The translations under genes and the position numbers were made by a program. From a virus: 64,000 nt of DNA. The notes under the pieces are model-generated. The model was not told the origin of the DNA. It made no database searches and worked only from the letters and a program-made list of their open reading frames with translations. Every line of letters starts with the position of its first letter. Position 1 is the first letter of the stretch. The stretch spans positions 32,001 through 96,000 of the IMG/VR virus record IMGVR_UViG_3300037264_001145, one strand, 5' to 3'. Shown one piece after another: positions 12,868 to 57,241 of this stretch.

Positions 12868-12906
12868 TTCGACAAAGAATTTTAAAAGTTTTTGGTATAA
12901 TCATAT

Positions 12907-36423: not shown

Positions 36424-36483
36424 TATTTTTCCTAATTCGTTATAAGTTGACCATTATCGGTTAAAATTGTTACTTTTATCAAT

Positions 36484-39909: not shown

Positions 39910-40381
39910 TCTCTTCCGCCTCTGATGGTACTGTTACTGGTTCTGGTTGCGGCTGTGATTTAACAGCAGTAGGCTTTGTCTTTTTGTTTTGGGGAGGAGC
40001 AGGAGCGGGAGCGGGAGCAACTTCCTTCTCCACAGAAGCAGCAACGACTGTTTCCCCATTTGTTTTTTGTACGACTTCAAAACTATTCAAAGTTAACACA
40101 AGAACCGTTCTTTTATCACCCTCCGTACTAGTCCATGAATCTTGTTTAATATAACCTTCAACAAAAACAGGAACACCCTTCTTGACAAATTGTGCAAACT
40201 TTTCGGCTCTTGGTCCAAAAATTTGACACTTAACAAAAGACACTTCCTTTTGCCACGCCCCATCCTTGTCCTTATAACTCTTATTGAAGGCTAAACTTAC
40301 GTTAGCCACGCTCGAAGTACCAAGTGGTCGCATTTCACTATCGGTTGTGGCGATCCCAACCCCATAAGCCTTGAGTTCCAT
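39890..40381 (-). CDS. ssb: Single-stranded DNA-binding protein
   Basis: OB-fold VANVSLAFN...EVSFVKCQIFG..AE....KKG..VFVEG.I....W and an acidic EEIPF tail. Confidence 0.93.
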   Translation of the reverse strand: MELKAYGVGIATTDSEMRPLGTSSVANVSLAFNKSYKDKDGAWQKEVSFVKCQIFGPRAEKFAQFVKKGVPVFVEGYIKQDSWTSTEGDKRTVLVLTLNSFEVVQKTNGETVVAASVEKEVAPAPAPAPPQNKKTKPTAVKSQPQPEPVTVPSEAEENEEIPF

Positions 40382-40430
40382 TTATTTCTCCTTTAAAAAC
40401 ACTATTTCCATAAGATATTATACCTGTCAC

Positions 40431-42185
40431 TCAAATTAATTTTCGAAGATCTGTAATAATTATTGATCCATTCTGTTTATGTCCAAAAATCATACAAACT
40501 AATGTGTCTTTACAAAGTCCATGAATTTTCTCATAAGTGTCTGGAAAAACTACCGCATGATCAATACTGTACGAAGAATCAGATATTGTAAGAAAACACA
40601 TTGGCGCACCAGGATTTTTCCCCTTCTTTGTCTTGGTGTGTTTTACGGAATCTATTACAGCACAAACCGAAAAACTTTCGCCGTTCAAAGCCTTAATTAA
40701 ATCTAAACAATTGTGTGAAGCAGCACTATCATCTGCGTCGTCAGAAGGAGAACAACTTAAAGAAATACCAAGGAAATATTTTTCTGCTGTTGATTTACCA
40801 AGATTCGTGTCTATTTCATCTTTTGCTAATTGATTCAATTTACCTTCGATGACTTTTAATCTTTTCGGCCCGACGCATGATTTGGAGGAGGATTCGTCAT
40901 AACCATTTTCTTTTAATTTGTTGATAATATCAAGCTTGGTCATTCCAGAAAAATCAAATGTTTCCCCTAGAATATTTTTAGACCATCCTATAATATCATC
41001 TTTTTTCATAGACGATAGAGACTTGCCTGGCATTTTTGACGCTTGTTCAACCATTTCGGTTAGAACATCTCTCATAGTTTTGTCGTCGCCATCGAACAAC
41101 TTATCAAAAAACCAATCTCTCTCCTTGTCTGTCAAGCCCCTAATTTCTTTATTTTTACCATCCTTGTCCCTGACAGACGTGCCAAATAGAATTTCTAGTT
41201 CTTTTACCATTTGCGATCTTTCCATTTGGTAACAGTCACAGGCACCGGATTTTATTAAAGCAATCCCAACGCTTCTATGGATAAGAGGTAACGATTTTAA
41301 AAACTCGTTCCACGTAGATAAAGATTCCTTGCTTTGTTCTACGATTTTAGATATCGCAGATTGACCAACCCCCCTTATATTTGAAAGACCAAATTTTATA
41401 CCGCTGTCTATCATTTGGAAGTGGACATTACGAACCCTAATATCGGGCGGAAATACATCTATCCCAAACAATCTTGCGTCCTGTACTAGCTTATAGACCT
41501 CTTCTTTGGGATCGGATTTGTAATTAGAGAATGTTAAATAACTAGTAAAAAATTCGTTTGGAAAGTGTGTTTTTATCCAAGCCGTTGTATAACTAAGCAT
41601 CCCATAACTTATGGCGTGGGATTTATTAAAAGAATATCTTTGACTTTTTTCAATCCATCCAAAAATTTGTTTTGCTGTATCTGTTGATACCAATCCTTTT
41701 TTAAGACACCCATCTATGAATTTGATTTTTAATTTTGCCATTAGCTCTGGTTTTTTCTTACCCATGGCTTTTCTTAGTTCGTCTGCGTTCTCTAACGAGA
41801 ATCCCGCAACTTCTGTTGCTATTTTGATGGCTTGTTCCTGATAGACCAAACAACCGTAAGTGTCGCCCAAAATATCTTTGAGACGTGGGTGCAAATAATT
41901 GGGTTGTTTTCTACCAAATTTTATATCTACGTATTCTTCAGATTGTCCACTTTCTAAACAACCCGGCCTCACCAATGCGGTCAGCGCAGCTAATTCCTGA
42001 ATATTTGATGGCTTGACTTTTCTAGCCCATTCTTGTCCAAGTCTAGTTTCCAGTTGAAAAACACCCGTAGTAAAACCAGAGGATATTAGTGCCCAAACCG
42101 CAGCGCAATCTAATGATATATTATTTGAATCGAATTTGCCTTTTTCGACTTGGCAATCACAAGAAGAAAATTTAATCGTGTCCAT
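40431..42185 (-). CDS. dnaE: DNA polymerase III alpha, C-terminal half (fingers, HhH, OB)
   Basis: TTGVFQLE, ALVRPG, LVYQEQ, LRKAMGKKK, YSFNKSHA, IKFGLSNIRGVG, C-terminal OB fold. Confidence 0.93.
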   Translation of the reverse strand: MDTIKFSSCDCQVEKGKFDSNNISLDCAAVWALISSGFTTGVFQLETRLGQEWARKVKPSNIQELAALTALVRPGCLESGQSEEYVDIKFGRKQPNYLHPRLKDILGDTYGCLVYQEQAIKIATEVAGFSLENADELRKAMGKKKPELMAKLKIKFIDGCLKKGLVSTDTAKQIFGWIEKSQRYSFNKSHAISYGMLSYTTAWIKTHFPNEFFTSYLTFSNYKSDPKEEVYKLVQDARLFGIDVFPPDIRVRNVHFQMIDSGIKFGLSNIRGVGQSAISKIVEQSKESLSTWNEFLKSLPLIHRSVGIALIKSGACDCYQMERSQMVKELEILFGTSVRDKDGKNKEIRGLTDKERDWFFDKLFDGDDKTMRDVLTEMVEQASKMPGKSLSSMKKDDIIGWSKNILGETFDFSGMTKLDIINKLKENGYDESSSKSCVGPKRLKVIEGKLNQLAKDEIDTNLGKSTAEKYFLGISLSCSPSDDADDSAASHNCLDLIKALNGESFSVCAVIDSVKHTKTKKGKNPGAPMCFLTISDSSYSIDHAVVFPDTYEKIHGLCKDTLVCMIFGHKQNGSIIITDLRKLI

Positions 42186-42217
42186 ATTCTATTATACCAG
42201 CAAAGCCATTAGATTTG

Positions 42218-42418
42218 TTAGCCGTCGTACATTCCAAGCAATCTGAATCCGCCTCGTCGGTCCCTAACGTAATCTGTGCCAGGACAACCTAGAGGATAAT
42301 AGGTTTTACTAACGCCACAGTTTTTTATACATTTTATTGTGATTCTATCTGTACAAGATTTATCGTGATCTATTACAAAAATACTGCCACAAGCGCATCT
42401 ATATTTATGTTTTTTCAT
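42218..42418 (-). CDS. Small Cys-rich (zinc-ribbon) protein
   Basis: CACG...C...C...C pattern; coupled to the upstream gene. Confidence 0.5.
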   Translation of the reverse strand: MKKHKYRCACGSIFVIDHDKSCTDRITIKCIKNCGVSKTYYPLGCPGTDYVRDRRGGFRLLGMYDG

Positions 42419-43406
42419 TTTTATCTCTTATCGACCCTAAAAGTCTTAAAATATCAAAACTCCCATCCGAAGATACTGGCACTATCTCTTTTATTCTATC
42501 GGGAAAATGATCCCAATAAACGATACTTTTACCACTAACATCTTCTTTCCATGGTGTTGTTAATTTAATCGCGTCCGTTAAATAATTTACCAATAATGAA
42601 AATGAACCTTGGCCAGATACAAATATGTCGGATGCGACAAGATGATAAAATGTTGAAAATACATCTTCGTCTATGTGTAATTTTATTTGTCGTTTGTCGG
42701 GAAGACGGTGCGATGATAAAACTCGCTTTTCTTTCTCTAACATATCCCATACATATATGTGGAATGTAATGTCTTGTAGCTCTTTCATGTTGCTCAAATT
42801 TTCTATTATTTTGAAATAATGATCAAGGCCCATCCATCTTCTATATCCATTTGCTTCTGTGACATCGCCTCTTCGGATGTGAATTCCAATATTTGTTGTG
42901 TCTTTGTCGAAATAACACTTAAAATTTTTGACTTGTTTGGAGTTATTGTATTTTCGTTTTAGGTCGTTGTTTTCATAAATATCCCAGTCTATATCAATAA
43001 ATTGTCCATCTGCCTGGCTACTTACTCTAAATAGAACATCGAGATCTTGGTTAAGCCCAGGATCTTGTATTAACTTCGCAAATTTTATATCGTCCCATGT
43101 AGTTTTTCCTTTCCACAACCAAGGAAGTTCTATCTCTTTACACCCCTTGGGAACATCACTTGTCGCCAGTTCGCCTTCGTGAAAGTTTAAAAAATCATTC
43201 CACGCTTTCACTGGCGTTGTTATTTGATAGAAGTTTGTTCCTTTTCTGTCAAACGTTCCATCTGTTTCTCCCTGAAATGGCTGATAAACGAATTTTAGAT
43301 TATATTTTTTAGCTAAAGTATATGGCACTAAAAAATTGCTAAATTGATGGCCTATTCCTGCTGCTCCACCATTATTAGCCTTCGGGTTAGATACTATGTA
43401 TTTCAT
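42405..43406 (-). CDS. GT11-like (alpha-1,2-fucosyltransferase-like) glycosyltransferase
   Basis: GIGHQFSNF near the N-terminus, IGIHIRRGD nucleotide-sugar motif, SDIFV...GSFS. Confidence 0.7.
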   Translation of the reverse strand: MKYIVSNPKANNGGAAGIGHQFSNFLVPYTLAKKYNLKFVYQPFQGETDGTFDRKGTNFYQITTPVKAWNDFLNFHEGELATSDVPKGCKEIELPWLWKGKTTWDDIKFAKLIQDPGLNQDLDVLFRVSSQADGQFIDIDWDIYENNDLKRKYNNSKQVKNFKCYFDKDTTNIGIHIRRGDVTEANGYRRWMGLDHYFKIIENLSNMKELQDITFHIYVWDMLEKEKRVLSSHRLPDKRQIKLHIDEDVFSTFYHLVASDIFVSGQGSFSLLVNYLTDAIKLTTPWKEDVSGKSIVYWDHFPDRIKEIVPVSSDGSFDILRLLGSIRDKNEKT

Positions 43407-44089
43407 TGTGGTTTAATCCTTTCAAATAAAACATTACATGTATTAGTGCGAAGCTTATTGAAACCTGGCAACAATTTTACCAGATCTCTTTCGTAAACTC
43501 CATCTTCCCACATATTCCCGGTACATTCTGTATATAAGTATTTTGTTATTTCTAGAGTTTCTTTTGCCCCATCAAGGAATTTGCGTTCTGCGCCATTAAC
43601 GTCTGCCCATATTAAATCTATGTTTTTTATTCCTTCTTGTTTTATAAAAGTGTCCAATCTTCTACCAAAAACACTAACTCCTTTTCCAAAAGGAATATCT
43701 GGATGTGCCCTCAAATGTTCTTTTGGTTTATTTAAAGATCCAGAGCCGCTCCAGTCTGTTATTCCCTCCTTAATCCAATGTGGAACCCCATGGCTTTCGT
43801 AAAAAATAGTTGGTCCATCAACATCTGATATTGCTTCTTCTATCAACTTATATCTATCTCCGCAGCCCCATAATGTAGACTGGTTTTCTGACAACTCCTT
43901 GATCTTTTTTATATTTCTTGGGTCTGGTTCAAAGCTAAATACCTTGGACTTTGGAAAAACACTAAGAAAATTTCTTGTGTCCTTTCCGTCATAAGCCCCT
44001 ATTTCTATAATCAACGGGTTATCTTTGTTAATTAACCCGCCTATATATCTAATTATGTCTAGATTCATATTATGGTCTACGCTTGTCAC
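43403..44089 (-). CDS. FkbM-family methyltransferase
   Basis: IIEIGAYDG...FSFEPDPRN...RLDTF...IDLIWADVNGAE..FL.GA..TL...YLYTE. Confidence 0.92.
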   Translation of the reverse strand: MTSVDHNMNLDIIRYIGGLINKDNPLIIEIGAYDGKDTRNFLSVFPKSKVFSFEPDPRNIKKIKELSENQSTLWGCGDRYKLIEEAISDVDGPTIFYESHGVPHWIKEGITDWSGSGSLNKPKEHLRAHPDIPFGKGVSVFGRRLDTFIKQEGIKNIDLIWADVNGAERKFLDGAKETLEITKYLYTECTGNMWEDGVYERDLVKLLPGFNKLRTNTCNVLFERIKPQ

Positions 44090-44622
44090 TTTTCACACTC
44101 CGTGTTTAAGCTTATCAGTGTCCCGTTTTCAAAATCCATTTTTGGAATATAGGCGCGAGAACAATCGTCATGTTGTGAATGCTCCGTGTTTCTCCAATCC
44201 CACAACCTAATATTTTTGAATCCTATTTTTTCTAACAAATTTTTTAAAGAAACAAAATCGTAGCATGTTTTATGATATATTGTTCCGTCGCCCATTTGCA
44301 TTTTTCCATAAAGCGGCCCCAAGAAATTATCTAACGAGAACATCCTTGAAAAATATAAGCGTACCATTTGTTCAAAATCTGGAACAGCTAAACGAAGAGT
44401 TCCTCCTTGTTTTAAAACCCTAAACCATTCCTCTAACACAAGCACGACTTCCGCTCTGTCGAAATACTCAAGAACATGAGAAGCATAAATTATATCAGCA
44501 GAATTATCTCCAAAAGGTAACTTTGTGACATCGTGAGAATGTAGGTATGGGAAATCTCCTCCGTCTATGCTTGTCCAGTCTGATCCAAAATCTCTTTTCC
44601 CACACCCCAAATGAAGTTTCAC
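44086..44622 (-). CDS. Class I SAM-dependent methyltransferase
   Basis: KLHLGCG, LPFGDNSADIIYASHVLEY, EWFRVLKQGGTLRLAVPD. Confidence 0.9.
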   Translation of the reverse strand: MKLHLGCGKRDFGSDWTSIDGGDFPYLHSHDVTKLPFGDNSADIIYASHVLEYFDRAEVVLVLEEWFRVLKQGGTLRLAVPDFEQMVRLYFSRMFSLDNFLGPLYGKMQMGDGTIYHKTCYDFVSLKNLLEKIGFKNIRLWDWRNTEHSQHDDCSRAYIPKMDFENGTLISLNTECEK

Positions 44623-45038
44623 TATATGAACTCCTTGTCTTCTGTTTGGCCGTGATACGGCCCCGTTTTGTATTCGTACACAACCGTATCGTCATCTAAC
44701 GACATATAGTTATGACCGCCCTCTAGTGTGATAGAGCAATCCAAAGAATGCAATACTATGTCATCCCTCAAAATCTTATTGTCGATATCGTACAGGGTAA
44801 CTTTTACCCTTCCTCTTAAGACAACCCACGACTCCTGTGCAATCTTGGTTTCATTAGAATTTTTCCATTTATGTTTGTGTGGTTTAAAAGTTTGAAGTTC
44901 ACGAAGTCTGATTGTTGCCATCTGTATAAAATTATGACAAGGCACAACATCTTCTCTTCCTTCTTGAATATCAAGAAACCTATTTATTATATGTAAAAGC
45001 TTTCCTGGTATAACTTTTGAATATATGTATTCTGCCAT
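44622..45038 (-). CDS. Cupin-fold protein (WbuC-like)
   Basis: PHKH...QESWVVLRG...GGHNY...YEYKTGPY. Confidence 0.75.
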   Translation of the reverse strand: MAEYIYSKVIPGKLLHIINRFLDIQEGREDVVPCHNFIQMATIRLRELQTFKPHKHKWKNSNETKIAQESWVVLRGRVKVTLYDIDNKILRDDIVLHSLDCSITLEGGHNYMSLDDDTVVYEYKTGPYHGQTEDKEFI

Positions 45039-45045
45039 AATTTAT

Positions 45046-46074
45046 TTACTTTACTCTAATGGCCCCTGTCCACTTACTGCTCGATTGTATGCCTGATTTT
45101 CCGTAGTAACCAAGCCAGTATTCAACCATCTCATCCAATAATGTTTCAAACGTATATTTTGGTTTCCATCCAAGAATAGTCCTTACTTTTGTAGAATCTC
45201 CTCTTAGAAAGTTTAATTCTTCTGGTCGTAGAAGTCTTGGATCTTGAACAACAAACTTTCTATAGTCCATACCAAGTTTACCGAAAACATAATCGCAAAG
45301 TTCTCTAACAGAATGGGCTTCGCCAGTAGCAACGGTAAAATCATCTGGTTCTTTGTGGCTTAGAATCATTTGCATCGCTCTTACATAATCATAACTGTGT
45401 CCCCAGTCTCTACTTGAATCCATATTTCCAAGCGTCAAAGTTTTTGTTAACCCAAGACTTATTTCTACCGCCCCCATGACAACTTTAGAAGTTACGAAAT
45501 TACTTCCTCTGCGTGGGGATTCGTGGTTGTGAAGTATTCCATTAGAACAGAATAAGCCAAAGGCTCGGCGATAATATCTTACCATATTAAAACTAAAAAG
45601 TTTAGAGCATCCATAGACACTCACCGGGTCTTTTGGTGTCGTCTCTCTTTGAAATTTATCTTCGTCAAAATTATTTCCGAAAATCTCAGAGCTACTTGCT
45701 TGATAGAATTTAGCGCTTGGAGCAAACTTACGAAAAGCTTCTAGCATATTGGCTACGCCCAAAGCATTAATTTGTACTGTATAGATTGGTATATCCGCAC
45801 TTATTCTTACGTGAGACATAGCACCCAAATTATAGATTTCGTCTGGTTGTGATTCTTTTATGACTTTTTCTATGGAAGACCCGTCAGACAAATCTCCATA
45901 ATAGGTATTTAACCTTTTAGATAAATGACATATTCTACTGTCCTGATTTTCTGCTACACTATGTCTGCGCAACATTCCATGAACATCATAGCCCAAATCC
46001 AATAAATGTTCTGCTAAATAAGAACCGTCTTGTCCACTTATACCAGTAATAAGTGCAACTCTTTTTTTGCTCAT
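45046..46074 (-). CDS. gmd: GDP-mannose 4,6-dehydratase
   Basis: ALITGISGQDGSYLAEHLL, PDEIYNLGAMSHV, YQASSSEIFG, YGCSK, HESPRRG.NFVT, RDWGH. Confidence 0.96.
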   Translation of the reverse strand: MSKKRVALITGISGQDGSYLAEHLLDLGYDVHGMLRRHSVAENQDSRICHLSKRLNTYYGDLSDGSSIEKVIKESQPDEIYNLGAMSHVRISADIPIYTVQINALGVANMLEAFRKFAPSAKFYQASSSEIFGNNFDEDKFQRETTPKDPVSVYGCSKLFSFNMVRYYRRAFGLFCSNGILHNHESPRRGSNFVTSKVVMGAVEISLGLTKTLTLGNMDSSRDWGHSYDYVRAMQMILSHKEPDDFTVATGEAHSVRELCDYVFGKLGMDYRKFVVQDPRLLRPEELNFLRGDSTKVRTILGWKPKYTFETLLDEMVEYWLGYYGKSGIQSSSKWTGAIRVK

Positions 46075-47144
46075 TTTACACCTTTCGTGTCTGTATAAAC
46101 CCTTTTTATTATCTTACATATTCTTCGAATTTGCCTACTCGTCAAATCTAAGCTCGACGGTAAATATACTAGTTCTTCGGATATTTCTTTTGCGCCTGGA
46201 AATTTAGCTCTTGTTTTATATACTGGGTTGTCCGAAATACATTTATAGTATTTTGTTGCTTGAATATTTTCTGATTTTAATGCTTCTATTATTTCGTTGG
46301 CAAAATGGGTTCTGTAGACCACCATCCACAAACTTTCTTTGTCTATTGTATTCGGAGAAAATCTGTAAGGTCTAATCCCGTTTATGTAATAGTTATTGAA
46401 AACTTGCCATCGTTTTTCCAGTAGGACTTTAATATCCCTTAATTGACTTAGAACATAACTTGCTTGAATATCACTGTATCTAAAATTGACGCCAATATGC
46501 TTGTGTAGACGATCTTTTCTCCATTGATCCCCATGGTCCCTGATCTGTCCTAATCTTTTGGCTACCTTGTCATCGTCCGTCACCACAGCCCCGCCCTGAC
46601 CCCCTGTAATCAATTTAGGGACACTAAAGGAGAACACCCCTACATTTCCTGTCCTGCCCGCATACGGCATCCCAATTGACTGGCATGAATCTTCTATTAT
46701 TGGTATGTTATGTGTACTACAGAATTTTTTAACAGCCCCAATATCATCTCCGTAATATGCGTTGTGATTAACGAATATTACACAACTGATGTTTTTATTA
46801 AATTTCAATTTATCTACATCTATACAAAGCGTGTATGGATTTATGTCTACAAGCTTTACTTTATATCCCATGAATCTGGCCGCATTTGCTCCCGCCAAGA
46901 AGGTGTAGGCGGGGAATATAATTGTAGACCCCCTTGGGAGTTTAAGGGCTTCAATAGCCATGATTAGCGCAACTGTTCCGCTCGTGGTTGTAAAGCAATA
47001 TTTTGAACCAGTTAATTTCTTGATTTCTTCTTCCAACAAAAGACATTCTGAACCCGGACCCAAATTGCCTTTGCGAAGAGTTTTAAATACAGCCCATGCA
47101 TCTTTGAATCGACATAATGGACTAAATTGAGATATTTTTTTCAT
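46071..47144 (-). CDS. DegT/DnrJ/EryC1/StrS PLP-dependent sugar aminotransferase (perosamine synthase-like)
   Basis: TSGTVAL, IEDSCQSIG, FSFSVPKLITGGQGGAVVT (catalytic Lys), G.NFR, YLPSS; adjacent to gmd. Confidence 0.88.
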   Translation of the reverse strand: MKKISQFSPLCRFKDAWAVFKTLRKGNLGPGSECLLLEEEIKKLTGSKYCFTTTSGTVALIMAIEALKLPRGSTIIFPAYTFLAGANAARFMGYKVKLVDINPYTLCIDVDKLKFNKNISCVIFVNHNAYYGDDIGAVKKFCSTHNIPIIEDSCQSIGMPYAGRTGNVGVFSFSVPKLITGGQGGAVVTDDDKVAKRLGQIRDHGDQWRKDRLHKHIGVNFRYSDIQASYVLSQLRDIKVLLEKRWQVFNNYYINGIRPYRFSPNTIDKESLWMVVYRTHFANEIIEALKSENIQATKYYKCISDNPVYKTRAKFPGAKEISEELVYLPSSLDLTSRQIRRICKIIKRVYTDTKGVK

Positions 47145-47959
47145 ACTAAAACTTTTTCATTTAAACTATTATACAATTCTATTAGTTTGTTATTTGCACA
47201 ATCTTCTGGACTGAAATGCATCAACTTCTTGTCTGCAAAATTTTTGTCTATTCTATGTCCTACGAAATCTGACAATGTTTGAACACCAATCCCATTTGCT
47301 AAATTTCCACAATTAACAAAAAACATATCTAGGTTTGAATAGTGGTGCAAGATGTATGTATATGTATTAAACCATAATTTTTCGAGGAAATCTTTATTTG
47401 CAACAGTTGCTTGTAAATATTCCGCATTTTTAATTATGTGAGATATGCTTTGCAGAAATTCTGACGGATGCCTAAAGACACAAATAAATTTACAGTTTTG
47501 TAAATAAGGAAGCCAAACAGGTAGGGTATATGAGAATCGCGGGTCTTTGAATAGAAATGGTTGTACGGAAATTAGTTTGAGTATTCTTTCTTGCACGCTT
47601 GCATTTACATACGCGGGATCAATGTTTTTATGACGAGGATTGCGGCGAGAATCTTTGTCAAATAGAAAGCATTCATTAAGTTTTTTAGATTCTGTAATCA
47701 CTGTGTCGGTCTCTAAAGTAGCAAGCCATCCTTGTGGTGAGTTTACTTTTGTTCTTATCACATCTACTTTTGGACACGACCATAGAATATCGTCATTCAA
47801 GCCATTTACTAATGGTGTTTCAAAATATCCTTTTTCATTAAATTTATCTGCGAGGTTCCCTGCCCCCCCGATGTTATAGCTTTGTCCAGAAGTAATTGCT
47901 CCGGCCACAAGGCTAGTTCCACTTCTTCCGCATCCAAGAATTATTATATTCTTAGCCAT
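47141..47959 (-). CDS. Sulfotransferase-family protein
   Basis: PAPS-binding IILGCGRSGTSLV, GYFE, FKDPR, CVFRHP. Confidence 0.8.
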   Translation of the reverse strand: MAKNIIILGCGRSGTSLVAGAITSGQSYNIGGAGNLADKFNEKGYFETPLVNGLNDDILWSCPKVDVIRTKVNSPQGWLATLETDTVITESKKLNECFLFDKDSRRNPRHKNIDPAYVNASVQERILKLISVQPFLFKDPRFSYTLPVWLPYLQNCKFICVFRHPSEFLQSISHIIKNAEYLQATVANKDFLEKLWFNTYTYILHHYSNLDMFFVNCGNLANGIGVQTLSDFVGHRIDKNFADKKLMHFSPEDCANNKLIELYNSLNEKVLV

Positions 47960-48143
47960 TATTTTCTCGTTCTTGGATTTCGTGTTCCATACTAGCTACT
48001 TGCCATCCAATTCTCCAGTCCATGTAATCGTTTTCTTCTACCCCTTTGTCGTATGGATTGACAATTAAACCGTCACTGTTGGTAAAAGCGTCTTTGCCTA
48101 ATCTGAAAGCTTTTTCGTTGAATAAATTTGGCGAATTAACCAT
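47952..48143 (-). CDS. Small protein with a ribosome-modulation-factor-like motif
   Basis: AFRLGKDAF...NPY...W.IGW; start moved to the ATG overlapping the upstream stop. Confidence 0.4.
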   Translation of the reverse strand: MVNSPNLFNEKAFRLGKDAFTNSDGLIVNPYDKGVEENDYMDWRIGWQVASMEHEIQERENNG

Positions 48144-48969
48144 TTTTCTTTTCCCATTCATCATAAAGGTAGTTGGGATCTCCTTCTCCCCATTCGACCC
48201 CTTCGTTTCTTACTATACCTTCTCCACGTTTTTTATTATACAAAATTGTATTATTTCTAAATCTTTTTTTATCTTCCGTATCGGTGTAAACTTGAGGCTT
48301 TGGGTGCCAGAGATGAATTGGACGACAATTTTGATCAAAATATTGTGCTAATCCTGATTTCATTAATCTGTTGTGCATATCAGCATCAACATACCCATAT
48401 GTTTTGAAATCTTCGTCATAACCACCAAGTTTCCTAAAAGCTTCCATTGGGGCACAGTGACCAAAATGCCAGCATACGTAGCTTCTTTCGTCTATTTGGT
48501 GTTCATGAGTTCTTTTTTGCAATTCTTCTGCGTTAATTTTACCACTAAAATATAAGTCCGTATCCTTTTTTTCACAAGAGTACGAGAGTCCGCCGCAACG
48601 ATATAAAACTTCAGGATGATCAAAACATCCTTTTATGAAATCTCCAGTATAAAAAAGCTCTGGATCTTTTTGGGCAAGCATTTTTGATTGTCCGTATTTG
48701 ATTACAATATTTCTCATAAAAGCGTCTCCGCGCTCCCACGGTGGAGATCTATCGAAAGTAAAATAATGTAGATTTTTTGCTTCTAGGTCTGAAAAATCTT
48801 CATGAATACTATCGTTAGCTACAAGGATCATCCATTTATCTGATGGAACAACAGTTTTTATGAGTGAGTCTAATACTCTTCTAATGTAATTTCCACGGCC
48901 AAAATTTGGTACGAGCAAGATTAAATCTCTATTTGTTATAGACCAATCAAAAGTTTTGTGTGTAATCAC
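48136..48969 (-). CDS. GT-A (GT2/GT7C-like) glycosyltransferase, paralogue
   Basis: LVPNFGR, VAND, KDPE, GGYDEDFKTYGYVDADMHNRL, IHLWH. Confidence 0.85.
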   Translation of the reverse strand: MITHKTFDWSITNRDLILLVPNFGRGNYIRRVLDSLIKTVVPSDKWMILVANDSIHEDFSDLEAKNLHYFTFDRSPPWERGDAFMRNIVIKYGQSKMLAQKDPELFYTGDFIKGCFDHPEVLYRCGGLSYSCEKKDTDLYFSGKINAEELQKRTHEHQIDERSYVCWHFGHCAPMEAFRKLGGYDEDFKTYGYVDADMHNRLMKSGLAQYFDQNCRPIHLWHPKPQVYTDTEDKKRFRNNTILYNKKRGEGIVRNEGVEWGEGDPNYLYDEWEKKNG

Positions 48970-48970
48970 T

Positions 48971-49738
48971 TTATCCTTCCCCCCAATTAATCTTAAGATT
49001 TCTTACAACGTTTTCGTCTCTTTTTTGAGAATATACGTCTTTCATTCCTTGATGGTTAGTGTTTATAGGTCCATGCCACAAATGAATTGGACTACAACTT
49101 TCGTCATAGAATGGTTTTAGTCCACATTTAAGCAATCTGTCATACATATCATGATCTTCTGGTCCATATGATTTAAAATCTTCATCGTAGCCATTAATTC
49201 TTCTAAAATAATCTATTGGTACGCAATGACCATAATGCCAATAAGTATATGTATTTTTCGGTATTGTAAATTTTATAGATGCCCGGATCAATTCTGCTTC
49301 GTCTATGAACCCGTTAAAAAAACTATGTTTTTGATATTGTTTGGTTACGTATGCCAATCCCCCACATCTGTATAAAACATCTTGGTGATCTAAACAACCT
49401 TTTATAAAATCTCCTGTAAATAAAATTTCAGGATCTTTTTGTGCAAATAGCTTACATTGACAACGTTTTATGGCTATGTTGCGAATAAAAGCACCGTTAC
49501 GTTCGATAAGAGGAGATCTTTCAAACGTAAAATAATGAACATTCTTCCATTGCAAATCTTCTAGTGGTTCGTGGAACCCATCATTGATAACCAAGACTAC
49601 CCACCTATCTCTTGGAACGGATGTTCTAACTAAATTATCTATAGTTCTTTGTATATAGTCCGCTCTTTGAAAGTTCGGTATAAATATAACTAAATCTTTT
49701 TTTGTTACATCCCAATCGAAATTCTTAAAGGTTGTCAT
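48971..49738 (-). CDS. GT-A (GT2/GT7C-like) glycosyltransferase, paralogue
   Basis: FIPNFQR, VINDG, KDPE, NGYDEDFKSYGPEDHDMYDRL, IHLWH. Confidence 0.85.
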   Translation of the reverse strand: MTTFKNFDWDVTKKDLVIFIPNFQRADYIQRTIDNLVRTSVPRDRWVVLVINDGFHEPLEDLQWKNVHYFTFERSPLIERNGAFIRNIAIKRCQCKLFAQKDPEILFTGDFIKGCLDHQDVLYRCGGLAYVTKQYQKHSFFNGFIDEAELIRASIKFTIPKNTYTYWHYGHCVPIDYFRRINGYDEDFKSYGPEDHDMYDRLLKCGLKPFYDESCSPIHLWHGPINTNHQGMKDVYSQKRDENVVRNLKINWGEG

Positions 49739-50712
49739 GTTTTTACCCCCTTAACAACTGTGTTTCCAAGAGGGCCGATATATTTTACTAGATTATGTTT
49801 TGTTAATAGTAGTTGTGCGTACTCATTTGCTCTTTCGGCCTTAACTTTTTCATAAAACTCATTTTTCCCGTCAAGTTTATCATACCCACCACCGCCACAT
49901 GGGTGAAAATGATCTACTGTAACCCTATCACAATGAGCAACTTTTATTTTCTTAAAAGCTCTCAAAAAGAATACGCTATGTTCAACTACTTTAAAATCAT
50001 CATCATATCCACCAAATGCTTGAATCGCTTCTTTTTTACCCATCCAAAAAGATAGAACTATATCGACCACTGGACAACCGAATTCAATTCCTTTATCTCT
50101 TCTCTCAAAGTGAGCTATTCCTCTCGCAAGTTCCGTTTCGTTAAGACACCCAAAGTAATTAGCAAATCCTGTTACATTTCCACCCACCAAGTCTATGTTT
50201 GAATTTTCTAATATATTTAACCATATTTCTAGTTGTGTGTGTGCTGTAAAAATAAAATCGTCGTCTAATGAAACAACATACGGGGTTGTAGCTGCGGCCA
50301 TTGCTCGGTTTTTCCCATAAGAAATTCCGCTGTTATACGGCAACTTAAGAAAAGTAACATTTGGTCTTGTATTTTTAGACGGCACTCTGCTATCGTCAGC
50401 AACAATAATTTTAATTCCTGGATAAAATTTGTCTATGCTTTTAAGGAGCCTCTCTAAACACTTAGGTCTTTCGAAGGCTTTGATCATTATTGTAACATTA
50501 TCAAGCGATCCTTTCATACCATCTCCTTTACAAAATTCTATCGGCGGAGAAATAACAATTTGTATTCCTTCTCGTATTACAGTAGCGGCTGGAAGCGTGG
50601 AAATTTGTTCCAAAACAGAGTCTACCGTAATCGGAACTGGAGTCAAAGCCGGAGCTAATCTTCTTTGTTTCTTTTCTTCTCCAGTTAGTTCGCGCCTTTG
50701 ATCATGCTTCAT
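49735..50712 (-). CDS. GT-A glycosyltransferase resembling the B4GALNT1/2 (GT12) catalytic domain
   Basis: VTIMIKAFERP..LERLL.SI.KFYP.I.IIVADDS...LPYNSG...G.N.A.....T.YVV.LDDDFIFT....LE......LVGG.V. Confidence 0.8.
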   Translation of the reverse strand: MKHDQRRELTGEEKKQRRLAPALTPVPITVDSVLEQISTLPAATVIREGIQIVISPPIEFCKGDGMKGSLDNVTIMIKAFERPKCLERLLKSIDKFYPGIKIIVADDSRVPSKNTRPNVTFLKLPYNSGISYGKNRAMAAATTPYVVSLDDDFIFTAHTQLEIWLNILENSNIDLVGGNVTGFANYFGCLNETELARGIAHFERRDKGIEFGCPVVDIVLSFWMGKKEAIQAFGGYDDDFKVVEHSVFFLRAFKKIKVAHCDRVTVDHFHPCGGGGYDKLDGKNEFYEKVKAERANEYAQLLLTKHNLVKYIGPLGNTVVKGVKT

Positions 50713-50713
50713 A

Positions 50714-51901
50714 TTATTTCCTTAAGAACAAGACCGCAGCCCTTTTTTCGTTACAATAATCGTCTTCTTTTCTCATAACAGAGGAGCATGACAAAAATGG
50801 GGTTAATCGGTGTGCTACGAATCCGCTATCTCTAAACCTTTTAGTAATATGATTTATGTCTGGAAGTTTAAGGCTCTGGTGAGTATCAATGTTACCAAAA
50901 AATACATCTGTTCTGGATTTGAGTGCGTTGGTTCCAATCTTAGTGTCTATTAAAACGGCCTCTTTGCTGGACGCAATAAGTTGGTCGATAAGGAAATCGT
51001 GTTCTTCTATATGATGAAAAATTCCCGCGCAAATTGTAAAATCGAACTTCCTTCCGTAGAAGGTATTTTGCCAAAAGGCAGGATCGAGAATATCACAATT
51101 GATAAATTCATACCTGTCTTCTGGCAAGAACTGATTTGAACTCCAATACAAGAGACCTTGAAGAATGTACTTGTTTCTTCCCTCTAGTGCAGTTAAACTT
51201 TTCGCACCGTATCCCGCATACTTAGAACTCCAATAAGATACGTTGGACCCAATATCTAATATACTCTTGTCTTTAAAATCATATTTATTTACTACTTGAT
51301 TAACTAGTAGATTTTCTCTATATGTATTTCTTGCAGATAATTCTTGTGGAGACCGGGGGGTGCCGACACCTGGGATAACCGTTTCCCCTCCTATTTTTAA
51401 TGGGTAATACCATGGATTAAGCATGTTAATAACATGATTTACATTTTGAACCCTTTTCTTTATTTCGCTAGAAGATACGCCTTTGTAGTAGGGTAGTGTG
51501 ACAATCCTTGTATAATGCGGAATGCTGGATTTAATACTTTCCCTAAGTTCGTCATCGTGAGACTCGCTTTCCACAACAACATCTGGTTTTATGTGTAATA
51601 TGTTTTTGACGGGAGAATATGTGTCTTGGCAAACTACTAAATCCACATATTTTATAGACTCTATTACCCTAACTCTTTCGTCCATCGACATGATTGGAGG
51701 ATTTTTTCTCTCCATTACCGCTTCGTCTGTCAAAACTCCGACAACCAAGATGTCGCCTAAAGCCTTGGCATTTTTTAGATGAAGCACATGTCCGTAGTGA
51801 ATTATATCTCCACAGACATAAGCATAAACTATTATCGGATCGGCTGATTTCTTATGCACGGTGGATTTCCACAGTGCCATCCCTTTACTGGCGTCTTCCA
51901 T
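50714..51901 (-). CDS. Fusion of a cytidylyltransferase (HxGH) and a class I methyltransferase
   Basis: N-terminal GDIIHYGH...VVGVLTDEA...KPDVVV; C-terminal SILDIGSN...ALEGR...FDFTICAGIFHH. The real start may be the Met near 51871. Confidence 0.85.
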   Translation of the reverse strand: MEDASKGMALWKSTVHKKSADPIIVYAYVCGDIIHYGHVLHLKNAKALGDILVVGVLTDEAVMERKNPPIMSMDERVRVIESIKYVDLVVCQDTYSPVKNILHIKPDVVVESESHDDELRESIKSSIPHYTRIVTLPYYKGVSSSEIKKRVQNVNHVINMLNPWYYPLKIGGETVIPGVGTPRSPQELSARNTYRENLLVNQVVNKYDFKDKSILDIGSNVSYWSSKYAGYGAKSLTALEGRNKYILQGLLYWSSNQFLPEDRYEFINCDILDPAFWQNTFYGRKFDFTICAGIFHHIEEHDFLIDQLIASSKEAVLIDTKIGTNALKSRTDVFFGNIDTHQSLKLPDINHITKRFRDSGFVAHRLTPFLSCSSVMRKEDDYCNEKRAAVLFLRK

Positions 51902-52446
51902 TCTCCGTACTGCTCCTTAAGATATTTTTCTATTTGTTTTACCACATTAACCTTCACACCCTTAAATTCCACTTCTTCAAATTCGTCGAAAACATCAGGA
52001 GAATAACAATAATACTTCTGCCCAGCATACCAAACTGAACACCATGTACAATTGACCCCTCTGTAATGAATAAACCATTCAATTTTAACCCTATTCCTGA
52101 TAAAAGAAATCTCCATACCGATGTTTCTATTACCAAGTACGTGAGCAAGTTGAAATCCTCTTGCCTTCATTTCATCTATAAGTTCCTGTTGTTTTAAATC
52201 GGTAAGATCAGAAATACTTGCTCCAAGATCAATATCGTCATCGTGGGCAATAAAATCTTTTTCTCTATAATAGCCAAGGCACGTACCGCAAGTAAGCCAT
52301 GTGAATAGACCAATTTTATTCGCTACTTCGTAAGCGTCTCTTAAATTATCGGTAGCATCTTTCACAACCTTTGGATCAGAACCAAACAATGGCGCTACCA
52401 TCCCGTTATCCATATCAAATTCCCCTTCCCCATTCACAACCACCAT
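51832..52446 (-). CDS. licD: LicD/fukutin-family phosphotransferase
   Basis: WLTCGTCLGYYRE..FIAHDDDIDLG...EKYL...YG.W..P. Confidence 0.85.
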   Translation of the reverse strand: MVVVNGEGEFDMDNGMVAPLFGSDPKVVKDATDNLRDAYEVANKIGLFTWLTCGTCLGYYREKDFIAHDDDIDLGASISDLTDLKQQELIDEMKARGFQLAHVLGNRNIGMEISFIRNRVKIEWFIHYRGVNCTWCSVWYAGQKYYCYSPDVFDEFEEVEFKGVKVNVVKQIEKYLKEQYGEWKTPVKGWHCGNPPCIRNQPIR

Positions 52447-53200
52447 TCGCTACCACGTCTAGTCTTTGCAAATCTTGTTTATATGTAGATTCATTGTCTA
52501 ATATTGTCTTATGAAATCGTCTCATTATAGGATGACCTATGTGATAAGTAGTTGTTTCTTTATCTATTAACACAGGCGCTCCTGATTTCTTTAGTCTTTC
52601 GAGCATTTGCCAATCCTCATACCCATAACCAGCTCTATACTTTTCATTATACCCGCCCATATCTTTTAATTTTTGTGTTCTTATACAACAACCAGCATGA
52701 AAAGCCTGATTTCTTTTATCGCTTGCTTCCCATTGTCTTAAAATTGGTAATTTGGTTAAATCAATAAATGGATTGTCAATTATTCTTTGTGTATCACACT
52801 CATTTAATTCAACCATTCCTCGCGGTCTGTAAACAACATCGTTAAGACCCAAGATCTTAGAAATCATATCTCCTTCTATAATAATTTCTGGATCTTTTGT
52901 AGCAAGCCATTCGCTTTGACACCGTTTTATTACAAAGTTTCTAATCATACACCCATTACGTTCATCAGCGGGATCTCTCTCGAACGTAAAATATCTTAGA
53001 TTAAAGTCCCGCTCTAAATCTTCCATTGGTTCATGCGGGCCATCGTTGACAATTAAAAACATCCATTTGTCTTCTGGAACAGAAGTCTTGAATCTCTTGA
53101 GGGTTGGGATTAAAAGATGTTTTCTTTTGAAATTGGGCACATAAAACACCAAATCCCTATTGGTACAAGACCAGTCAAAATCAGTTGCCGATTTGAACAT
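52415..53200 (-). CDS. GT-A (GT2/GT7C-like) glycosyltransferase, paralogue
   Basis: FDWS.T.RDL, VPNFKR, VNDG, KDPE, GGYNE.Y..GYGYEDWQM.ERL. Confidence 0.85.
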   Translation of the reverse strand: MFKSATDFDWSCTNRDLVFYVPNFKRKHLLIPTLKRFKTSVPEDKWMFLIVNDGPHEPMEDLERDFNLRYFTFERDPADERNGCMIRNFVIKRCQSEWLATKDPEIIIEGDMISKILGLNDVVYRPRGMVELNECDTQRIIDNPFIDLTKLPILRQWEASDKRNQAFHAGCCIRTQKLKDMGGYNEKYRAGYGYEDWQMLERLKKSGAPVLIDKETTTYHIGHPIMRRFHKTILDNESTYKQDLQRLDVVANGGCEWGRGI

Positions 53201-53552
53201 ACCTCGTCGTTTTCCTTACCTCTACCTTCCTTGTCAAGCTTTCTTTCTTTTCAAAGCAGCCGTCGCAGATAGCTCCTTGAATCCTATAATCCCTATGACT
53301 CATCATATCCTCTAATTGATCAAACTTGCTACCATAACCAAAATGTATTTCTATTGTTCCACCTTCTAAATTGGGTAACAAGCCTTCGTCGTCGTTCCCT
53401 GGTCCATTTGGATCGAACGGTATTTCTTTCTCGCAAACTATGCATCGCCATTCCCGCGAAGTAGTTGGTCTATTTCTACGCACAGGCTCGTCCTGATGAG
53501 GACAACAAACATTTGCTTCACACCCACAAGAATTGTATGTTTTTTTATCCAT
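53181..53552 (-). CDS. Cys-rich hypothetical protein
   Basis: CIVCEK and ICDGC pairs; coupled ORF. Confidence 0.55.
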   Translation of the reverse strand: MDKKTYNSCGCEANVCCPHQDEPVRRNRPTTSREWRCIVCEKEIPFDPNGPGNDDEGLLPNLEGGTIEIHFGYGSKFDQLEDMMSHRDYRIQGAICDGCFEKKESLTRKVEVRKTTRYVQIGN

Positions 53553-54018
53553 ATATTATATCCTCAAACCCTTCCGATAAATCTGGTTTCTCCAATTGTT
53601 TATTTAATTCACAAATTACACTGTCGGGAACTTTCTTTTCGTTTCTTCGAAAGTTGTGTTGCAAACAAGAACCCAAGCTTTTGTCAAAATATAAAGCTAT
53701 GATTTTAAATCCAAAAGCTTTACCAAATTCAATCCAATAAGTCCTACTTTCTTTATTTATAAGCCACGCACTCTCATCAAGTATTATACTAAGATTTGGA
53801 TTTTTGGATAAAGCAAAAATTATATGGCCGACAATTTGTTTTAAATAATCTTCTTTATCTTTATTATATTGTTCTTTGTAGAACGCTAGTCTGAAATCAT
53901 CTACCGAAATAACAACAATATTTTTTTCTCTTTCGGCTATTTTTCTTGACGCCGTTGTTTTACCAGATGCTGGCGGGGCTACGGTTAAATACAAGTACCT
54001 AGTCATCAACCTCAACAC
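53545..54018 (-). CDS. P-loop kinase (polynucleotide kinase/AAA_33-like)
   Basis: VAPPASGKTT Walker A, IS.DDFR, IILD, CL..N.RR...VP..VI. Confidence 0.8.
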   Translation of the reverse strand: MLRLMTRYLYLTVAPPASGKTTASRKIAEREKNIVVISVDDFRLAFYKEQYNKDKEDYLKQIVGHIIFALSKNPNLSIILDESAWLINKESRTYWIEFGKAFGFKIIALYFDKSLGSCLQHNFRRNEKKVPDSVICELNKQLEKPDLSEGFEDIIYG

Positions 54019-56356
54019 CTTCCTGTATTTCGATACTGCTATCTATTCCGTTGATCAAGTCTTGTGCTAACCACACTTTGTCCAAGGCAACAACCCCAAG
54101 AAAGTCGAACTTTACACATCCAAGAGCTTCACTAGACTCCATTTCTAAGCCAACAATTCTCGTCTTGTTTTTGGGGTCGTAAATAAGAGGCACGAGGTCA
54201 TTAATTGGTACATCTGCTATAACGAGACCTGCTGCGTGACGGCTTTGTGATTTTTTAGTTCCTTCCAATCTCATACTTTGATCAAATAGTGGTTTGTACC
54301 ACTGATAATATTCCTTCATTTTTTCTATGTTATCAATACTCCAATTTAAAATACCGTAACTAGAATTCTCTGTTTCTTTTCGTATTTTTTGTAAATCATC
54401 TATGATCGAAGCTTCATCTGGCATTAAACCAGTAATTTCATTGGATAAATCAAATGGGGTCATAGAGACTTCGTTTGGATTCTTGCCCTCTTTTGTTGCC
54501 TTAACTTTCATTAGATGTTTAACTAAATCTGGCTGGGCACGGAAAACTTCTTTAAGAGCGGCTTTTCCTTGAAGTCTACCGAACGTGACCATTTGAGAGA
54601 CCTTATCTTCGCCCCATTTGTTAATCAAATATTCAACAACTTTTTCCCTAAACACCACACCAATATCCATATCTATATCGGGAAGACTAATATGGCCAGG
54701 ATTTGTTTGGACGGATTTGTTTTCATCCAACTTGCAACACATCCTTAATGCATCCACGATATGTGAATTATTTGGATTTGGAAATTCTAATCCCAAAACC
54801 TGGTCCTCTGATGATGAACACATTGTTTGATTATTTTTGAATACTTCTAATATATATAACCACATCTTTGGATTATTATTATCTATCCAATCAGCTTCTT
54901 CTTTAAGTAATTTTTTATTATGTATACTTTTGTATTTTAAATTACATTGGATAATTAAATTCTTTATTATATTTCTTGTATCATCAATTTTTTCTTGAGT
55001 TATAGAATCGGAATTATCTGATAACCATTCCATGAATGTTGTTGGCCCGACATCAAAGTGTGGTGGTATATTTCTTCCATGATTATAGAATCTTTCCCAA
55101 TATAAATCATACTCAATAGGATCTATTCCAGTTATATTTAGTAGATAATTAACCAAAGATCCTGCGCCAGAACCTCTTCCTTTTCCTCTTGGAGCTTTGT
55201 TTTCGTCAACAAATTTACAAGCATCATAAACAATTAGAAAATAGTCCGCAAGTCTAGCCTCTTTGATAACGGACAATTCCCTAAGCAGTCTTGTCCAGTA
55301 TATTTTTTTCTTGTCCATTGATAGGTTGGACAAGATGTTTTTGGCTCCTTGAACACATAATTTTTTCAGGTAATCATCAGAAGAATCATTGTTGGGAGTT
55401 TGGTATTTAGGTAAGCAAGGTTTCCTTCCAATGCTTGTAGATTTTATCATATCGGTAATTACAAGCGTTTGTTCCATTTCGGATTTGCTATAGTGTTCCT
55501 GCATTTCTTCTGGAGAGAATATATAGAATGTATCTCGGAAGAAAAAGGACATGGTATCTGCGCCCTCTCCTTTAAGTCTAGCTTGTTCCTCTGCCGTTGT
55601 ATGAAGTTGGCTATACAGAAGTATTCTATGATCTTCAACCTGCTCCCTTTTGGCATAATGTGCATCTAACGTACAAGCAGACGGTACATCCAAAGCCTTT
55701 GATACTTCTCTCAAACATTCCACGGCAACTTTTTGGGCTGGCATCCCTTCTTCCTGTAATTCTATGAAGTAGTTTTCCTTACCAAAAATTGAAATATATC
55801 TAGCAACAATTTCGTCGGCTATATTTCTCCAATTCGGTTTGAGTAACTTTCTAACTTCGTCCATATCTTCTGTTTGTTCGCCTATTAAACACGCCTGACC
55901 GACATCTGTGAATAAAGATTCTGATAATTCACCGATGATACAACCACTCAAACATATTAAATTGCGATTTTTAGTAAAGAGATGTAAATTATCTACGCCA
56001 ATTCTAGGTTTTCTGTAAAAGTGCTCTGGTTGATTGGTGTAGCTAACAAGAGACATTAGTTCTTTTATACCATCGTCGTTTTTGGCCAGGATTGTTAAAT
56101 GGTTGTGGGACTTATTCTCGTTGGTTTTAATGGTTTGATCAAGTTTAGACGTATATATTTCACATCCGTAGACTGGTTTGATTCCATATTTTTTGCAAGC
56201 TTTTTGAAAATCAACCATTCCAGAAACATTGCCATGATCTGTCAGAGCACAAGCTGGACAACCAATTTCTTTTGCTCTTTTAGCAATTTGTTCGGGACTT
56301 GAGAGGCCGTCTAAAAGACTAAACCAACTATGAACATGCAAACAACTATAACACAC
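53999..56356 (-). CDS. dnaE: DNA polymerase III alpha, N-terminal half (PHP, palm, thumb)
   Basis: LHVHS.FSLLDG, LTDHG, GRGSGAGSLV.Y.L.IT.IDP, PDIDMD, HAAG.VI, VKFDFLG. Confidence 0.93.
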   Translation of the reverse strand: MCYSCLHVHSWFSLLDGLSSPEQIAKRAKEIGCPACALTDHGNVSGMVDFQKACKKYGIKPVYGCEIYTSKLDQTIKTNENKSHNHLTILAKNDDGIKELMSLVSYTNQPEHFYRKPRIGVDNLHLFTKNRNLICLSGCIIGELSESLFTDVGQACLIGEQTEDMDEVRKLLKPNWRNIADEIVARYISIFGKENYFIELQEEGMPAQKVAVECLREVSKALDVPSACTLDAHYAKREQVEDHRILLYSQLHTTAEEQARLKGEGADTMSFFFRDTFYIFSPEEMQEHYSKSEMEQTLVITDMIKSTSIGRKPCLPKYQTPNNDSSDDYLKKLCVQGAKNILSNLSMDKKKIYWTRLLRELSVIKEARLADYFLIVYDACKFVDENKAPRGKGRGSGAGSLVNYLLNITGIDPIEYDLYWERFYNHGRNIPPHFDVGPTTFMEWLSDNSDSITQEKIDDTRNIIKNLIIQCNLKYKSIHNKKLLKEEADWIDNNNPKMWLYILEVFKNNQTMCSSSEDQVLGLEFPNPNNSHIVDALRMCCKLDENKSVQTNPGHISLPDIDMDIGVVFREKVVEYLINKWGEDKVSQMVTFGRLQGKAALKEVFRAQPDLVKHLMKVKATKEGKNPNEVSMTPFDLSNEITGLMPDEASIIDDLQKIRKETENSSYGILNWSIDNIEKMKEYYQWYKPLFDQSMRLEGTKKSQSRHAAGLVIADVPINDLVPLIYDPKNKTRIVGLEMESSEALGCVKFDFLGVVALDKVWLAQDLINGIDSSIEIQEGVEVDD

Positions 56357-57241
56357 TTAATTGCTCCTGTTTACAGAAATTTGATGATATTTATTTTGAA
56401 CATATTCTTCGCCGAACGTATTTAAATCTGACCAAATTTGCGTACACGCATCCTCTTTATTATACGGGCACAACTTACATTTCCATGAACGGCTGCGGCG
56501 GATTAAACTGTCTTTTTTAATCTGCTGAAAAATCTCGTATAGTTGCGACAAAATAAATGGAATATCTTCGTCCGATAAACCTATCGTTGTAGGACCATCT
56601 TGTGTGTAATAAAAAGTTAAAATCACGTTTTTGTACTGTGGGTACAACGCTCTAGCCGCCATAAAATAAAATCTAGCTTGCAATTTTTGAGTTAAGCCAT
56701 AAAAATCCATCTCGGTTTTATCAAAAGGACTACTTCTGGTGCCACTCTTGTAGTCTACAATCTCTATCGTGTCCCCATCAATTTCGTGAACTAGGTCAAT
56801 ATACCCACGTACCCGAATCTGTTTTGTCTCGCCTCCGTCCCGAATCTCCCATTCGGGGCCAGGAAGTTCTACAGCAAACCATTGTTCTGCATCTACTATT
56901 TTCAAAACATATGGATTATAAAATTTGTCTTCGACAATTTTTAAAAATGATGCTTTGCACTTTTTGTAATCAGCCGACAGTCCGCGACTAGTAAATTTTC
57001 TTAAATCTATATGGGGGTTTTCGTCCCATGATCTATCAAACAACCACGAAGGATCGACATTTGTTTTTCCTTTTTTCTTTAATCTCGCCATCCATTCAAG
57101 GGCTGTGTGTATGATTGTTCCAACCGTAGCGGCCTTCCCGCTACCACTAGATTCTAGTTCCAGGCAATATGTTAGCCAATATTTAAAGGGACAAAATTTA
57201 TATGTATCTATGAGGCTTGAACTAAATTTGATTATACGCAT
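56357..57241 (-). CDS. Cas4-like PD-(D/E)xK exonuclease
   Basis: S.S.I..Y..CP..Y, GTIIH.ALE, GYIDLV, IVDYKSG, C-terminal CKLCPY....C. Confidence 0.85.
   Translation of the reverse strand: MRIIKFSSSLIDTYKFCPFKYWLTYCLELESSGSGKAATVGTIIHTALEWMARLKKKGKTNVDPSWLFDRSWDENPHIDLRKFTSRGLSADYKKCKASFLKIVEDKFYNPYVLKIVDAEQWFAVELPGPEWEIRDGGETKQIRVRGYIDLVHEIDGDTIEIVDYKSGTRSSPFDKTEMDFYGLTQKLQARFYFMAARALYPQYKNVILTFYYTQDGPTTIGLSDEDIPFILSQLYEIFQQIKKDSLIRRSRSWKCKLCPYNKEDACTQIWSDLNTFGEEYVQNKYHQISVNRSN

Follow-up and report, generated by a model that had tools for sequence, protein, structure and literature searches.

Introduction

To our knowledge, the catalytic polymerase is one chain in all C-family replicases that have been studied biochemically. 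Here we analyze a dnaE gene, encoding the C-family DNA polymerase III (Pol III) alpha, that is divided between two distant open reading frames (ORFs) of an uncultured phage. The stretch under study, hereafter the window, is 64,000 nucleotides (nt) long and corresponds to bases 32001–96000 of the 119.6-kb virus record IMGVR_UViG_3300037264_001145.

Several split replicative polymerases have been described. In cyanobacteria dnaE is likewise encoded by two distant genes, but each carries half of a split intein (the Ssp/Npu DnaE split intein), the cut lies at the FNKSH site and the product is spliced to one chain (PMC2677866). Among the "fractured genes" of environmental phages are three dnaE loci with split inteins and a free-standing homing endonuclease (Dassa et al. 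2009, PMC2677866). Intein-less polymerases of two chains are known from family B: in Aeromonas phages 25 and 44RR the split PolB (gene 43A/43B) co-purifies and is active (Petrov et al. 2010, reviewed in PMC2988022), and DNAP-N and DNAP-C of PhiKZ form a 1:1 complex (PMC13648687). For group 2.2 T4-like jumbo phages, a "minimal" split Pol III alpha encoded without inteins by two distant genes has been proposed (Iyer et al. 2021, PMC7824862); it lacks the PHP and other DnaE domains and accompanies a family-B polymerase (PMC7824862).

The locus in the window compares differently with each of these. Like the fractured genes it is a phage-like dnaE in separate ORFs with genes between them, but neither a split intein nor a homing endonuclease lies at the cut; unlike in cyanobacteria, the FNKSH site is intact and the cut falls just after the palm. 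Unlike in the group 2.2 jumbo phages, the PHP, HhH and OB domains are all present, and searches of the record and of five complete relatives found no PolB. The split PolB enzymes of the Aeromonas phages and PhiKZ, although of family B rather than C, are the best functional precedent. In the literature searched we found no description of a DnaE that is of full length, lacks an intein and is split where palm and fingers meet.

Results

Together, the two halves tile Thermus aquaticus (Taq) Pol III alpha (residues 7–644 plus 634–1108), with a possible overlap at the cut of at most about 10 residues. Both are encoded on the minus strand; coordinates throughout are positions of the window. The N-half (785 amino acids (aa), 53999..56356) contains the PHP, the palm, which bears the three catalytic aspartates, and the thumb, as judged from Pfam (PHP, PF02811, E = 1.7e-41; DNA_pol3_alpha, PF07733, E = 5.3e-61) and from an alignment to Taq residues 7–626 (envelope up to 644). 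By motif position, the catalytic aspartate pair lies in PDIDMD (residues 559–564, 54665..54682, minus strand) and the third aspartate in KFDFLG (residues 749–754, 54095..54112, minus strand). D560, D562 and D751 are invariant in the clade alignments, and the K, D, L and G of KFDFLG are kept in 98/98 clade sequences. The nine positions that we take, by analogy with M. tuberculosis DnaE1, to be PHP metal ligands are all occupied (H7, H9, D16, H41, E66, H86, C139, D231 and H233) by residues that are invariant or nearly invariant among 22 relatives, and a proofreading PHP domain in the N-half is plausible. The AlphaFold2 (AF2) model of this half has a mean predicted local distance difference test score (pLDDT) of 84.7.

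The C-half (584 aa, 40431..42185) contains the fingers, the HhH (beta-binding) and the OB domains. Pfam identifies DNA_pol3_finger (PF17657, E = 7.5e-48) and HHH_6 (PF14579, E = 1.6e-13), and the alignment to Taq begins at residue 642, with the fingers portion covering 642–968 and an envelope of 634–1108. In the AF2 model (mean pLDDT 84.3) a C-terminal beta-barrel, the OB, is predicted at residues 504–582, and Foldseek matched the model to M. tuberculosis DnaE1 (7pu7), Taq (4iqj/2hpi) and E. coli (5fku) structures over ~585 columns. The motifs TTGVFQLE and RYSFNKSHA occupy residues 39–46 and 183–191. This anatomy, which is directly established, agrees with the original prediction drawn from the sequence: an N-half that has the PHP, the PDIDMD aspartates and KFDFLG and then ends, a C-half that starts just before the TTGVFQLE fingers motif, an intact cyanobacterial split-intein site in RYSFNKSHA, and halves collinear on one strand. 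No part of the polymerase is missing from the pair.

The cut falls one helix past the third catalytic aspartate, so that one chain has the three aspartates and the other the fingers that bind the nucleotide. Only 16 residues of the N-half extend beyond the last shared helix, and 17 residues of the C-half precede its first aligned residue. These extensions are too short for intein halves, since reported split-intein N parts comprise 88–105 residues (PMC2677866). As the original prediction had held, neither junction has intein features: no Hint/intein Pfam domain is found in either half, nor an HN-C/S/T motif, and in ~70 relatives the extensions at the cut (tails of 1–24 residues, heads of 2–51) contain no intein blocks. 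At the N-half stop there is a 20-nt overlap with the neighbouring gene, and a gap of 32 nt precedes the C-half, a coding density that leaves no room for intron halves, and an Rfam search of the whole window gave 0 matches. No free-standing homing endonuclease was found among the island genes between the halves, which encode sugar-related enzymes, a kinase and methyltransferases. The absence of splicing elements is thus a matter of direct observation, and it makes covalent joining of the halves by protein or RNA trans-splicing, in the style of cyanobacterial dnaE or the fractured genes, highly improbable, even though fractured dnaE with split inteins occurs in marine metagenomes (PMC2677866) and true inteins occur at other sites of the relatives' halves.

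Inteins do circulate in this polymerase family, with none at the cut. In what follows, G and L numbers denote related IMG/VR contigs and loci, and P numbers related proteins. Contiguous true inteins were seen within the N-half of P0036, P0095, P0098 and P0101; in the C-half of relatives they lie near residue 78 and, near residue 187, at the FNKSH site, which is the cyanobacterial split-intein site. Intein-bearing relatives include G005, G016, G018, G020, G021 and G023, and P0275 and P0276 are among further intein-bearing proteins. A duplicated piece at the junction was also considered, from the resemblance of GVEVD in the N-half tail to the Taq junction GVELD, and was dropped because the match is too short to call.

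The two-gene design recurs among relatives. Nearly all of the best 120 N-half clusters at 90% identity are 745–810 aa long and comprise PHP and palm only, and the four longer ones are intein-bearing. Stand-alone clusters at 90% identity number more than 115 for the N-half and at least 118 for the C-half; of the best 149 representatives at 50% identity, 119 are N-halves only, all with the same end point, alongside 24 fused and 6 partial proteins. The original prediction had left it to relatives to show fused, adjacent or separated halves: all examined IMG/VR loci with a 3′ end on the contig (60-odd of 79) are split, their N-halves ending at the same site, and gaps range from short to 18 kb. A separate C-half ORF is present in 34/37 related records, and in 9/9 of those at least 90% complete. 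By these comparisons, the split is ancient and common to hundreds of related phages.

The source is a single metagenomic contig, and the 11.8 kb between the halves might accordingly be an artefact of chimeric assembly. The halves are nevertheless separated in the same order, on the same strand, in the independent assemblies G002 (13.3 kb), G003 (13.7 kb) and G005 (~18.2 kb); G001 and G004 are consistent with the split, their contigs ending before the C-half. The inter-half island is syntenic in G001–G005, and no composition break is seen across the split region of the window (G+C content ~36%). We regard an assembly artefact as negligibly probable.

Equally, the two ORFs could be decaying relics in a phage that is replicated by a host polymerase or another phage polymerase, whose gene could lie off the contig in a record that is 71% complete. 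Five CheckV-complete relatives, two of them with terminal repeats, argue otherwise: each has one N-half and one C-half, and none encodes a family A or B polymerase (PolA/PolB). The window's own record holds no second dnaE, PolA or PolB. Co-occurrence of the halves and their status as sole polymerase are thereby observed directly in these genomes, and two of the three circumstances that the original prediction had named as incompatible with it, a chimeric assembly and an intact dnaE elsewhere, did not appear. The alignments show no variation in the catalytic aspartates, the PHP ligands or the finger motifs, and for the catalytic residues this extends over hundreds of clusters. The proportion of synonymous differences (pS) is 0.72–0.80, which is saturated, versus 0.12–0.24 for nonsynonymous differences (pN), and nonsynonymous divergence (dN) is equal in both halves, pointing to strong purifying selection that acts equally on the two. 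Decay is very hard to reconcile with this pattern, and we give the relic explanation very little weight.

Two additions at the cut distinguish the split forms of this clade. The N-half ends in an acidic tail (residues 770–785, net charge −6; 54002..54049, minus strand) with interspersed hydrophobic residues, of the VLDEEFVE type, a pattern found in ~85% of clade sequences; residues 774–785 have an AF2 pLDDT below 50, and in the model of the isolated half they are predicted to be disordered. The first residues of the C-half form a head (residues 1–27; 42105..42185, minus strand) of the pattern I-K-F-x-x-C-x-C-x-V-E-K-G-K-F, in whose clade alignment C9 and C11 are kept in 106/107 and C27 in 107/107 sequences, and which AF2 predicts as a beta-hairpin (strands 3–5 and 12–14, pLDDT 86–90). 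Fused proteins inside the same large clade have neither the acidic tail nor the CxC head. Tail and CxC...C hairpin may form a docking clasp, a candidate suggested by conservation and single-chain models.

The same features could instead mean that the halves need a third, bridging component (a metal, or a phage or host protein), or that each half has a separate role, for example the N-chain as a PHP exonuclease. The invariant C9, C11 and C27, the clade-specific invariant cysteines of the N-half (C214, C334 and C380) and a tail that is disordered alone would all fit a bridge, as would the conserved 72-aa micro-ORF that a second clade keeps between its halves. The window's clade, however, has no homologue of this micro-ORF: the Cys-rich 66-aa ORF directly upstream of the C-half (42218..42418, minus strand) is similar neither to it nor to phiT1 gp19. 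The split gp18 of phiT1 has no CxC head, so that a clasp is not universally required. We consider a bridging component or separate roles unlikely, less remote than splicing or decay.

Rossellomorea phage phiT1 (PV767480.1) is the cultured comparison for the cut. Its gp20 and gp18, both annotated as DNA polymerase III subunit alpha, are an intein-less pair cut at the same position: gp20 ends 5 residues past the helix aligned with ...DLIN, and gp18 begins at the residue aligned with F18 of the C-half. Unlike the window's phage, phiT1 is cultured, has a genome of 52.8 kb and separates its halves by one 49-aa ORF; its halves are ~33–36% identical to those described here and lack the acidic tail, the CxC head and an insert of ~125 aa. 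This clade-specific insert (residues 427–551, 54704..55078, minus strand) lies just before PDIDMD and is conserved in the clade and absent from Taq, E. coli, the clade of 40% identity and phiT1; AF2 predicts it to be a four-helix bundle (helices 441–451, 454–475, 481–494 and 497–513). The uncultured aquatic clade of ~40% identity (L053–L094) shares the cut site and the two-gene design, and part of it has the CxC head; unlike the window, it has neither the 125-aa insert nor the glycan island, and its gap is only 0.84–1.6 kb, occupied by the conserved 72-aa ORF and a 227-aa RNase_T/DnaQ-type exonuclease. The 72-aa ORF carries the motif SIC.INDYY...YQVH (L059:11904-12835, with the same position in L053–L093).

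Sixteen tightly packed genes fill the interval between the halves (42405..54018, minus strand). In order from the N-half they encode an AAA_33 kinase, orf123, a glycosyltransferase, LicD, a cytidylyltransferase-methyltransferase, a GT2 glycosyltransferase, two further glycosyltransferases, a sulfotransferase, a DegT aminotransferase, a GDP-mannose 4,6-dehydratase, orf138, two methyltransferases and orf333; four to five of the products are glycosyltransferases. The combination of GDP-mannose 4,6-dehydratase and DegT aminotransferase suggests a GDP-perosamine-like route. A ThyA-type hydroxymethylase (PF00303) was not found, so that a role of the sugar genes in decorating DNA gains no support. 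The C-half is followed directly downstream by an OB-fold SSB (39890..40381, minus strand) and then by three further glycosyltransferase genes (35413..39362, minus strand). The glycan locus, with ~8 glycosyltransferases in all, thus extends over ~18 kb (35413–39362 plus 42405–53200) and surrounds DnaE-C and SSB. Its gene content varies between clade members.

Among split relatives the gap ranges from 0.84 to 18 kb, with cargo that differs by lineage. Some members of the window's clade (L022:12285-13296, and also L023, L050 and L024) have a gap of ~1 kb with Macro-domain and UDG-superfamily genes, others have gaps of 2 to 18 kb, and more distant members carry other sugar-related genes, among them an aldolase-like gene, a sulfotransferase and a Caps_synth glycosyltransferase. 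Because the cut is shared with clades of ~40% identity and with phiT1, it predates the island and is far older. In L022, L050 and L024, whose gaps are short, homologues of the three downstream glycosyltransferase genes are found at the corresponding place; since these relatives already carry them, DnaE-C and SSB seem to have been embedded in an expanding glycan locus. The proposal that the break served as a landing site for a large accessory island holds insofar as the gap receives variable cargo; it does not hold as a description of one island dropped into the cut, since the cut is the older of the two and the glycan locus continues past DnaE-C and SSB.

A GGTATAAT box ends 5 nt ahead of the C-half ATG (42191..42198, minus strand) and recurs at the same position in L028 and L047 amid different flanking sequence. 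No Shine-Dalgarno sequence precedes the ATG. The window contains 9 such boxes versus 3.2 expected, and the box may represent a class of phage promoter whose mRNAs are leaderless or have short leaders. A separate leaderless transcript of the C-half is possible. Further boxes were noted at 12894-12901, 5 nt before the ATG of the ORF at 12907-13476, and at 40417-40424, 36 nt before the SSB gene. The promoter-like signal first attributed to the C-half thus finds a counterpart in a box conserved in two relatives, but gains nothing from a generic sigma-70 promoter scan of the region, which gave 53 sites versus 62.7 expected from shuffles; generic promoter and terminator scans, showing no enrichment over shuffles, support neither the presence nor the absence of separate transcription.

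The history of the split is less simple than its breadth. A FastTree phylogeny was built from 141 N-regions, and protein length was the sole basis for calling each one split or fused. One clade of 117 rows comprises 111 split sequences and 6 fused ones, and most of a second clade is fused. The tree does not establish a single origin of the split: it needs at least 7 switches between the two states, and re-fusions or repeated splits are possible. The dnaE gene of Moorella phage MTATph1 is fused.

Other breaks occur elsewhere in the gene. In the relative L048 (2061-3040; ~65–70% identity) the N-half is broken inside the 125-aa insert, giving a three-piece DnaE; the break, at a site different from the main cut, holds a GIY-YIG homing-endonuclease gene and a 189-aa ORF. 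This locus shows that fracture of the polymerase by mobile elements is ongoing and tolerated. In Bacillus phage vB_BceM_WH1 (LC597490.1 194353-198551, L099) DnaE is annotated as three pieces, gp235-237, and the gaps of 0.4–0.7 kb are probably introns or endonuclease genes.

The phage that carries these genes is tailed: its products include the large terminase, portal and major head proteins and a tape measure of 1655 aa. CheckV rates the record 71% complete; the genome of this uncultured phage is about 170 kb. No close cultured relative was found, the best polymerase identity among the phage records searched being ~34%. Further replication genes lie upstream of the N-half (56357..60558, minus strand): a PD-(D/E)XK nuclease, a deoxynucleoside monophosphate kinase, a primase and a DnaB helicase.

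Discussion

We infer that the two ORFs encode the subunits of one working DnaE-type replicative polymerase that assembles non-covalently, and put the probability of this reading at roughly 0.8. The original prediction of a two-subunit C-family replicase is upheld to that degree, by inference from the lack of splicing elements, the selection on both halves, their co-occurrence and their standing as the sole polymerase of complete relatives. Some observations weigh against it: a search for a beta clamp gene (PF00712) found none, no fourth zinc ligand was identified for the CxC...C head, a host polymerase could in principle replicate the phage, and the window's own record is incomplete.

In the proposed enzyme, the N-chain would supply the PHP proofreading domain, the palm with its three catalytic aspartates and the thumb, and the C-chain would supply the fingers for binding of the incoming nucleotide, the HhH domain for binding of duplex and clamp, and the OB. 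The active site would then exist only once the chains dock, non-covalently, at the native palm/fingers interface. In this clade, docking is probably reinforced by the two additions confined to its split forms, the disordered acidic tail of the N-chain and the CxC...C beta-hairpin of the C-chain, which may bind zinc. The main cut may have begun as a mobile-element fracture like that in L048. Halves that need not adjoin would be freed from adjacency, so that the interval could turn into a variable cargo region, filled here by a glycan-biosynthesis locus that likewise continues downstream of DnaE-C and SSB. A fuller version, in which the tail clasps the hairpin (perhaps through a shared zinc), the interval serves as a cargo bay for a rapidly changing glycan locus that is transcribed as part of the replication gene block, and the C-half is expressed as a leaderless mRNA from its own GGTATAAT promoter, is a tentative conjunction, suggested by sequence and models, that we think considerably less likely than not.

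The two-gene DnaE belongs among the known split replicative polymerases; what sets the window apart is how far the halves lie from each other, the nesting of a glycan locus, the 125-aa insert and the pairing of tail and hairpin. If the reading is correct, a C-family enzyme can be cut cleanly between palm and fingers and still work, and in a very large group of phages from aquatic habitats the two-chain form would be the sole polymerase. Engineers of split Pol III enzymes would have a natural template to start from, the assembly of composite active sites could be studied on a test case, and a large lineage of uncultured phages would gain a marker. The range of gap lengths, from 0.84 to 18 kb, further illustrates that an essential gene, once split, no longer constrains local gene order.

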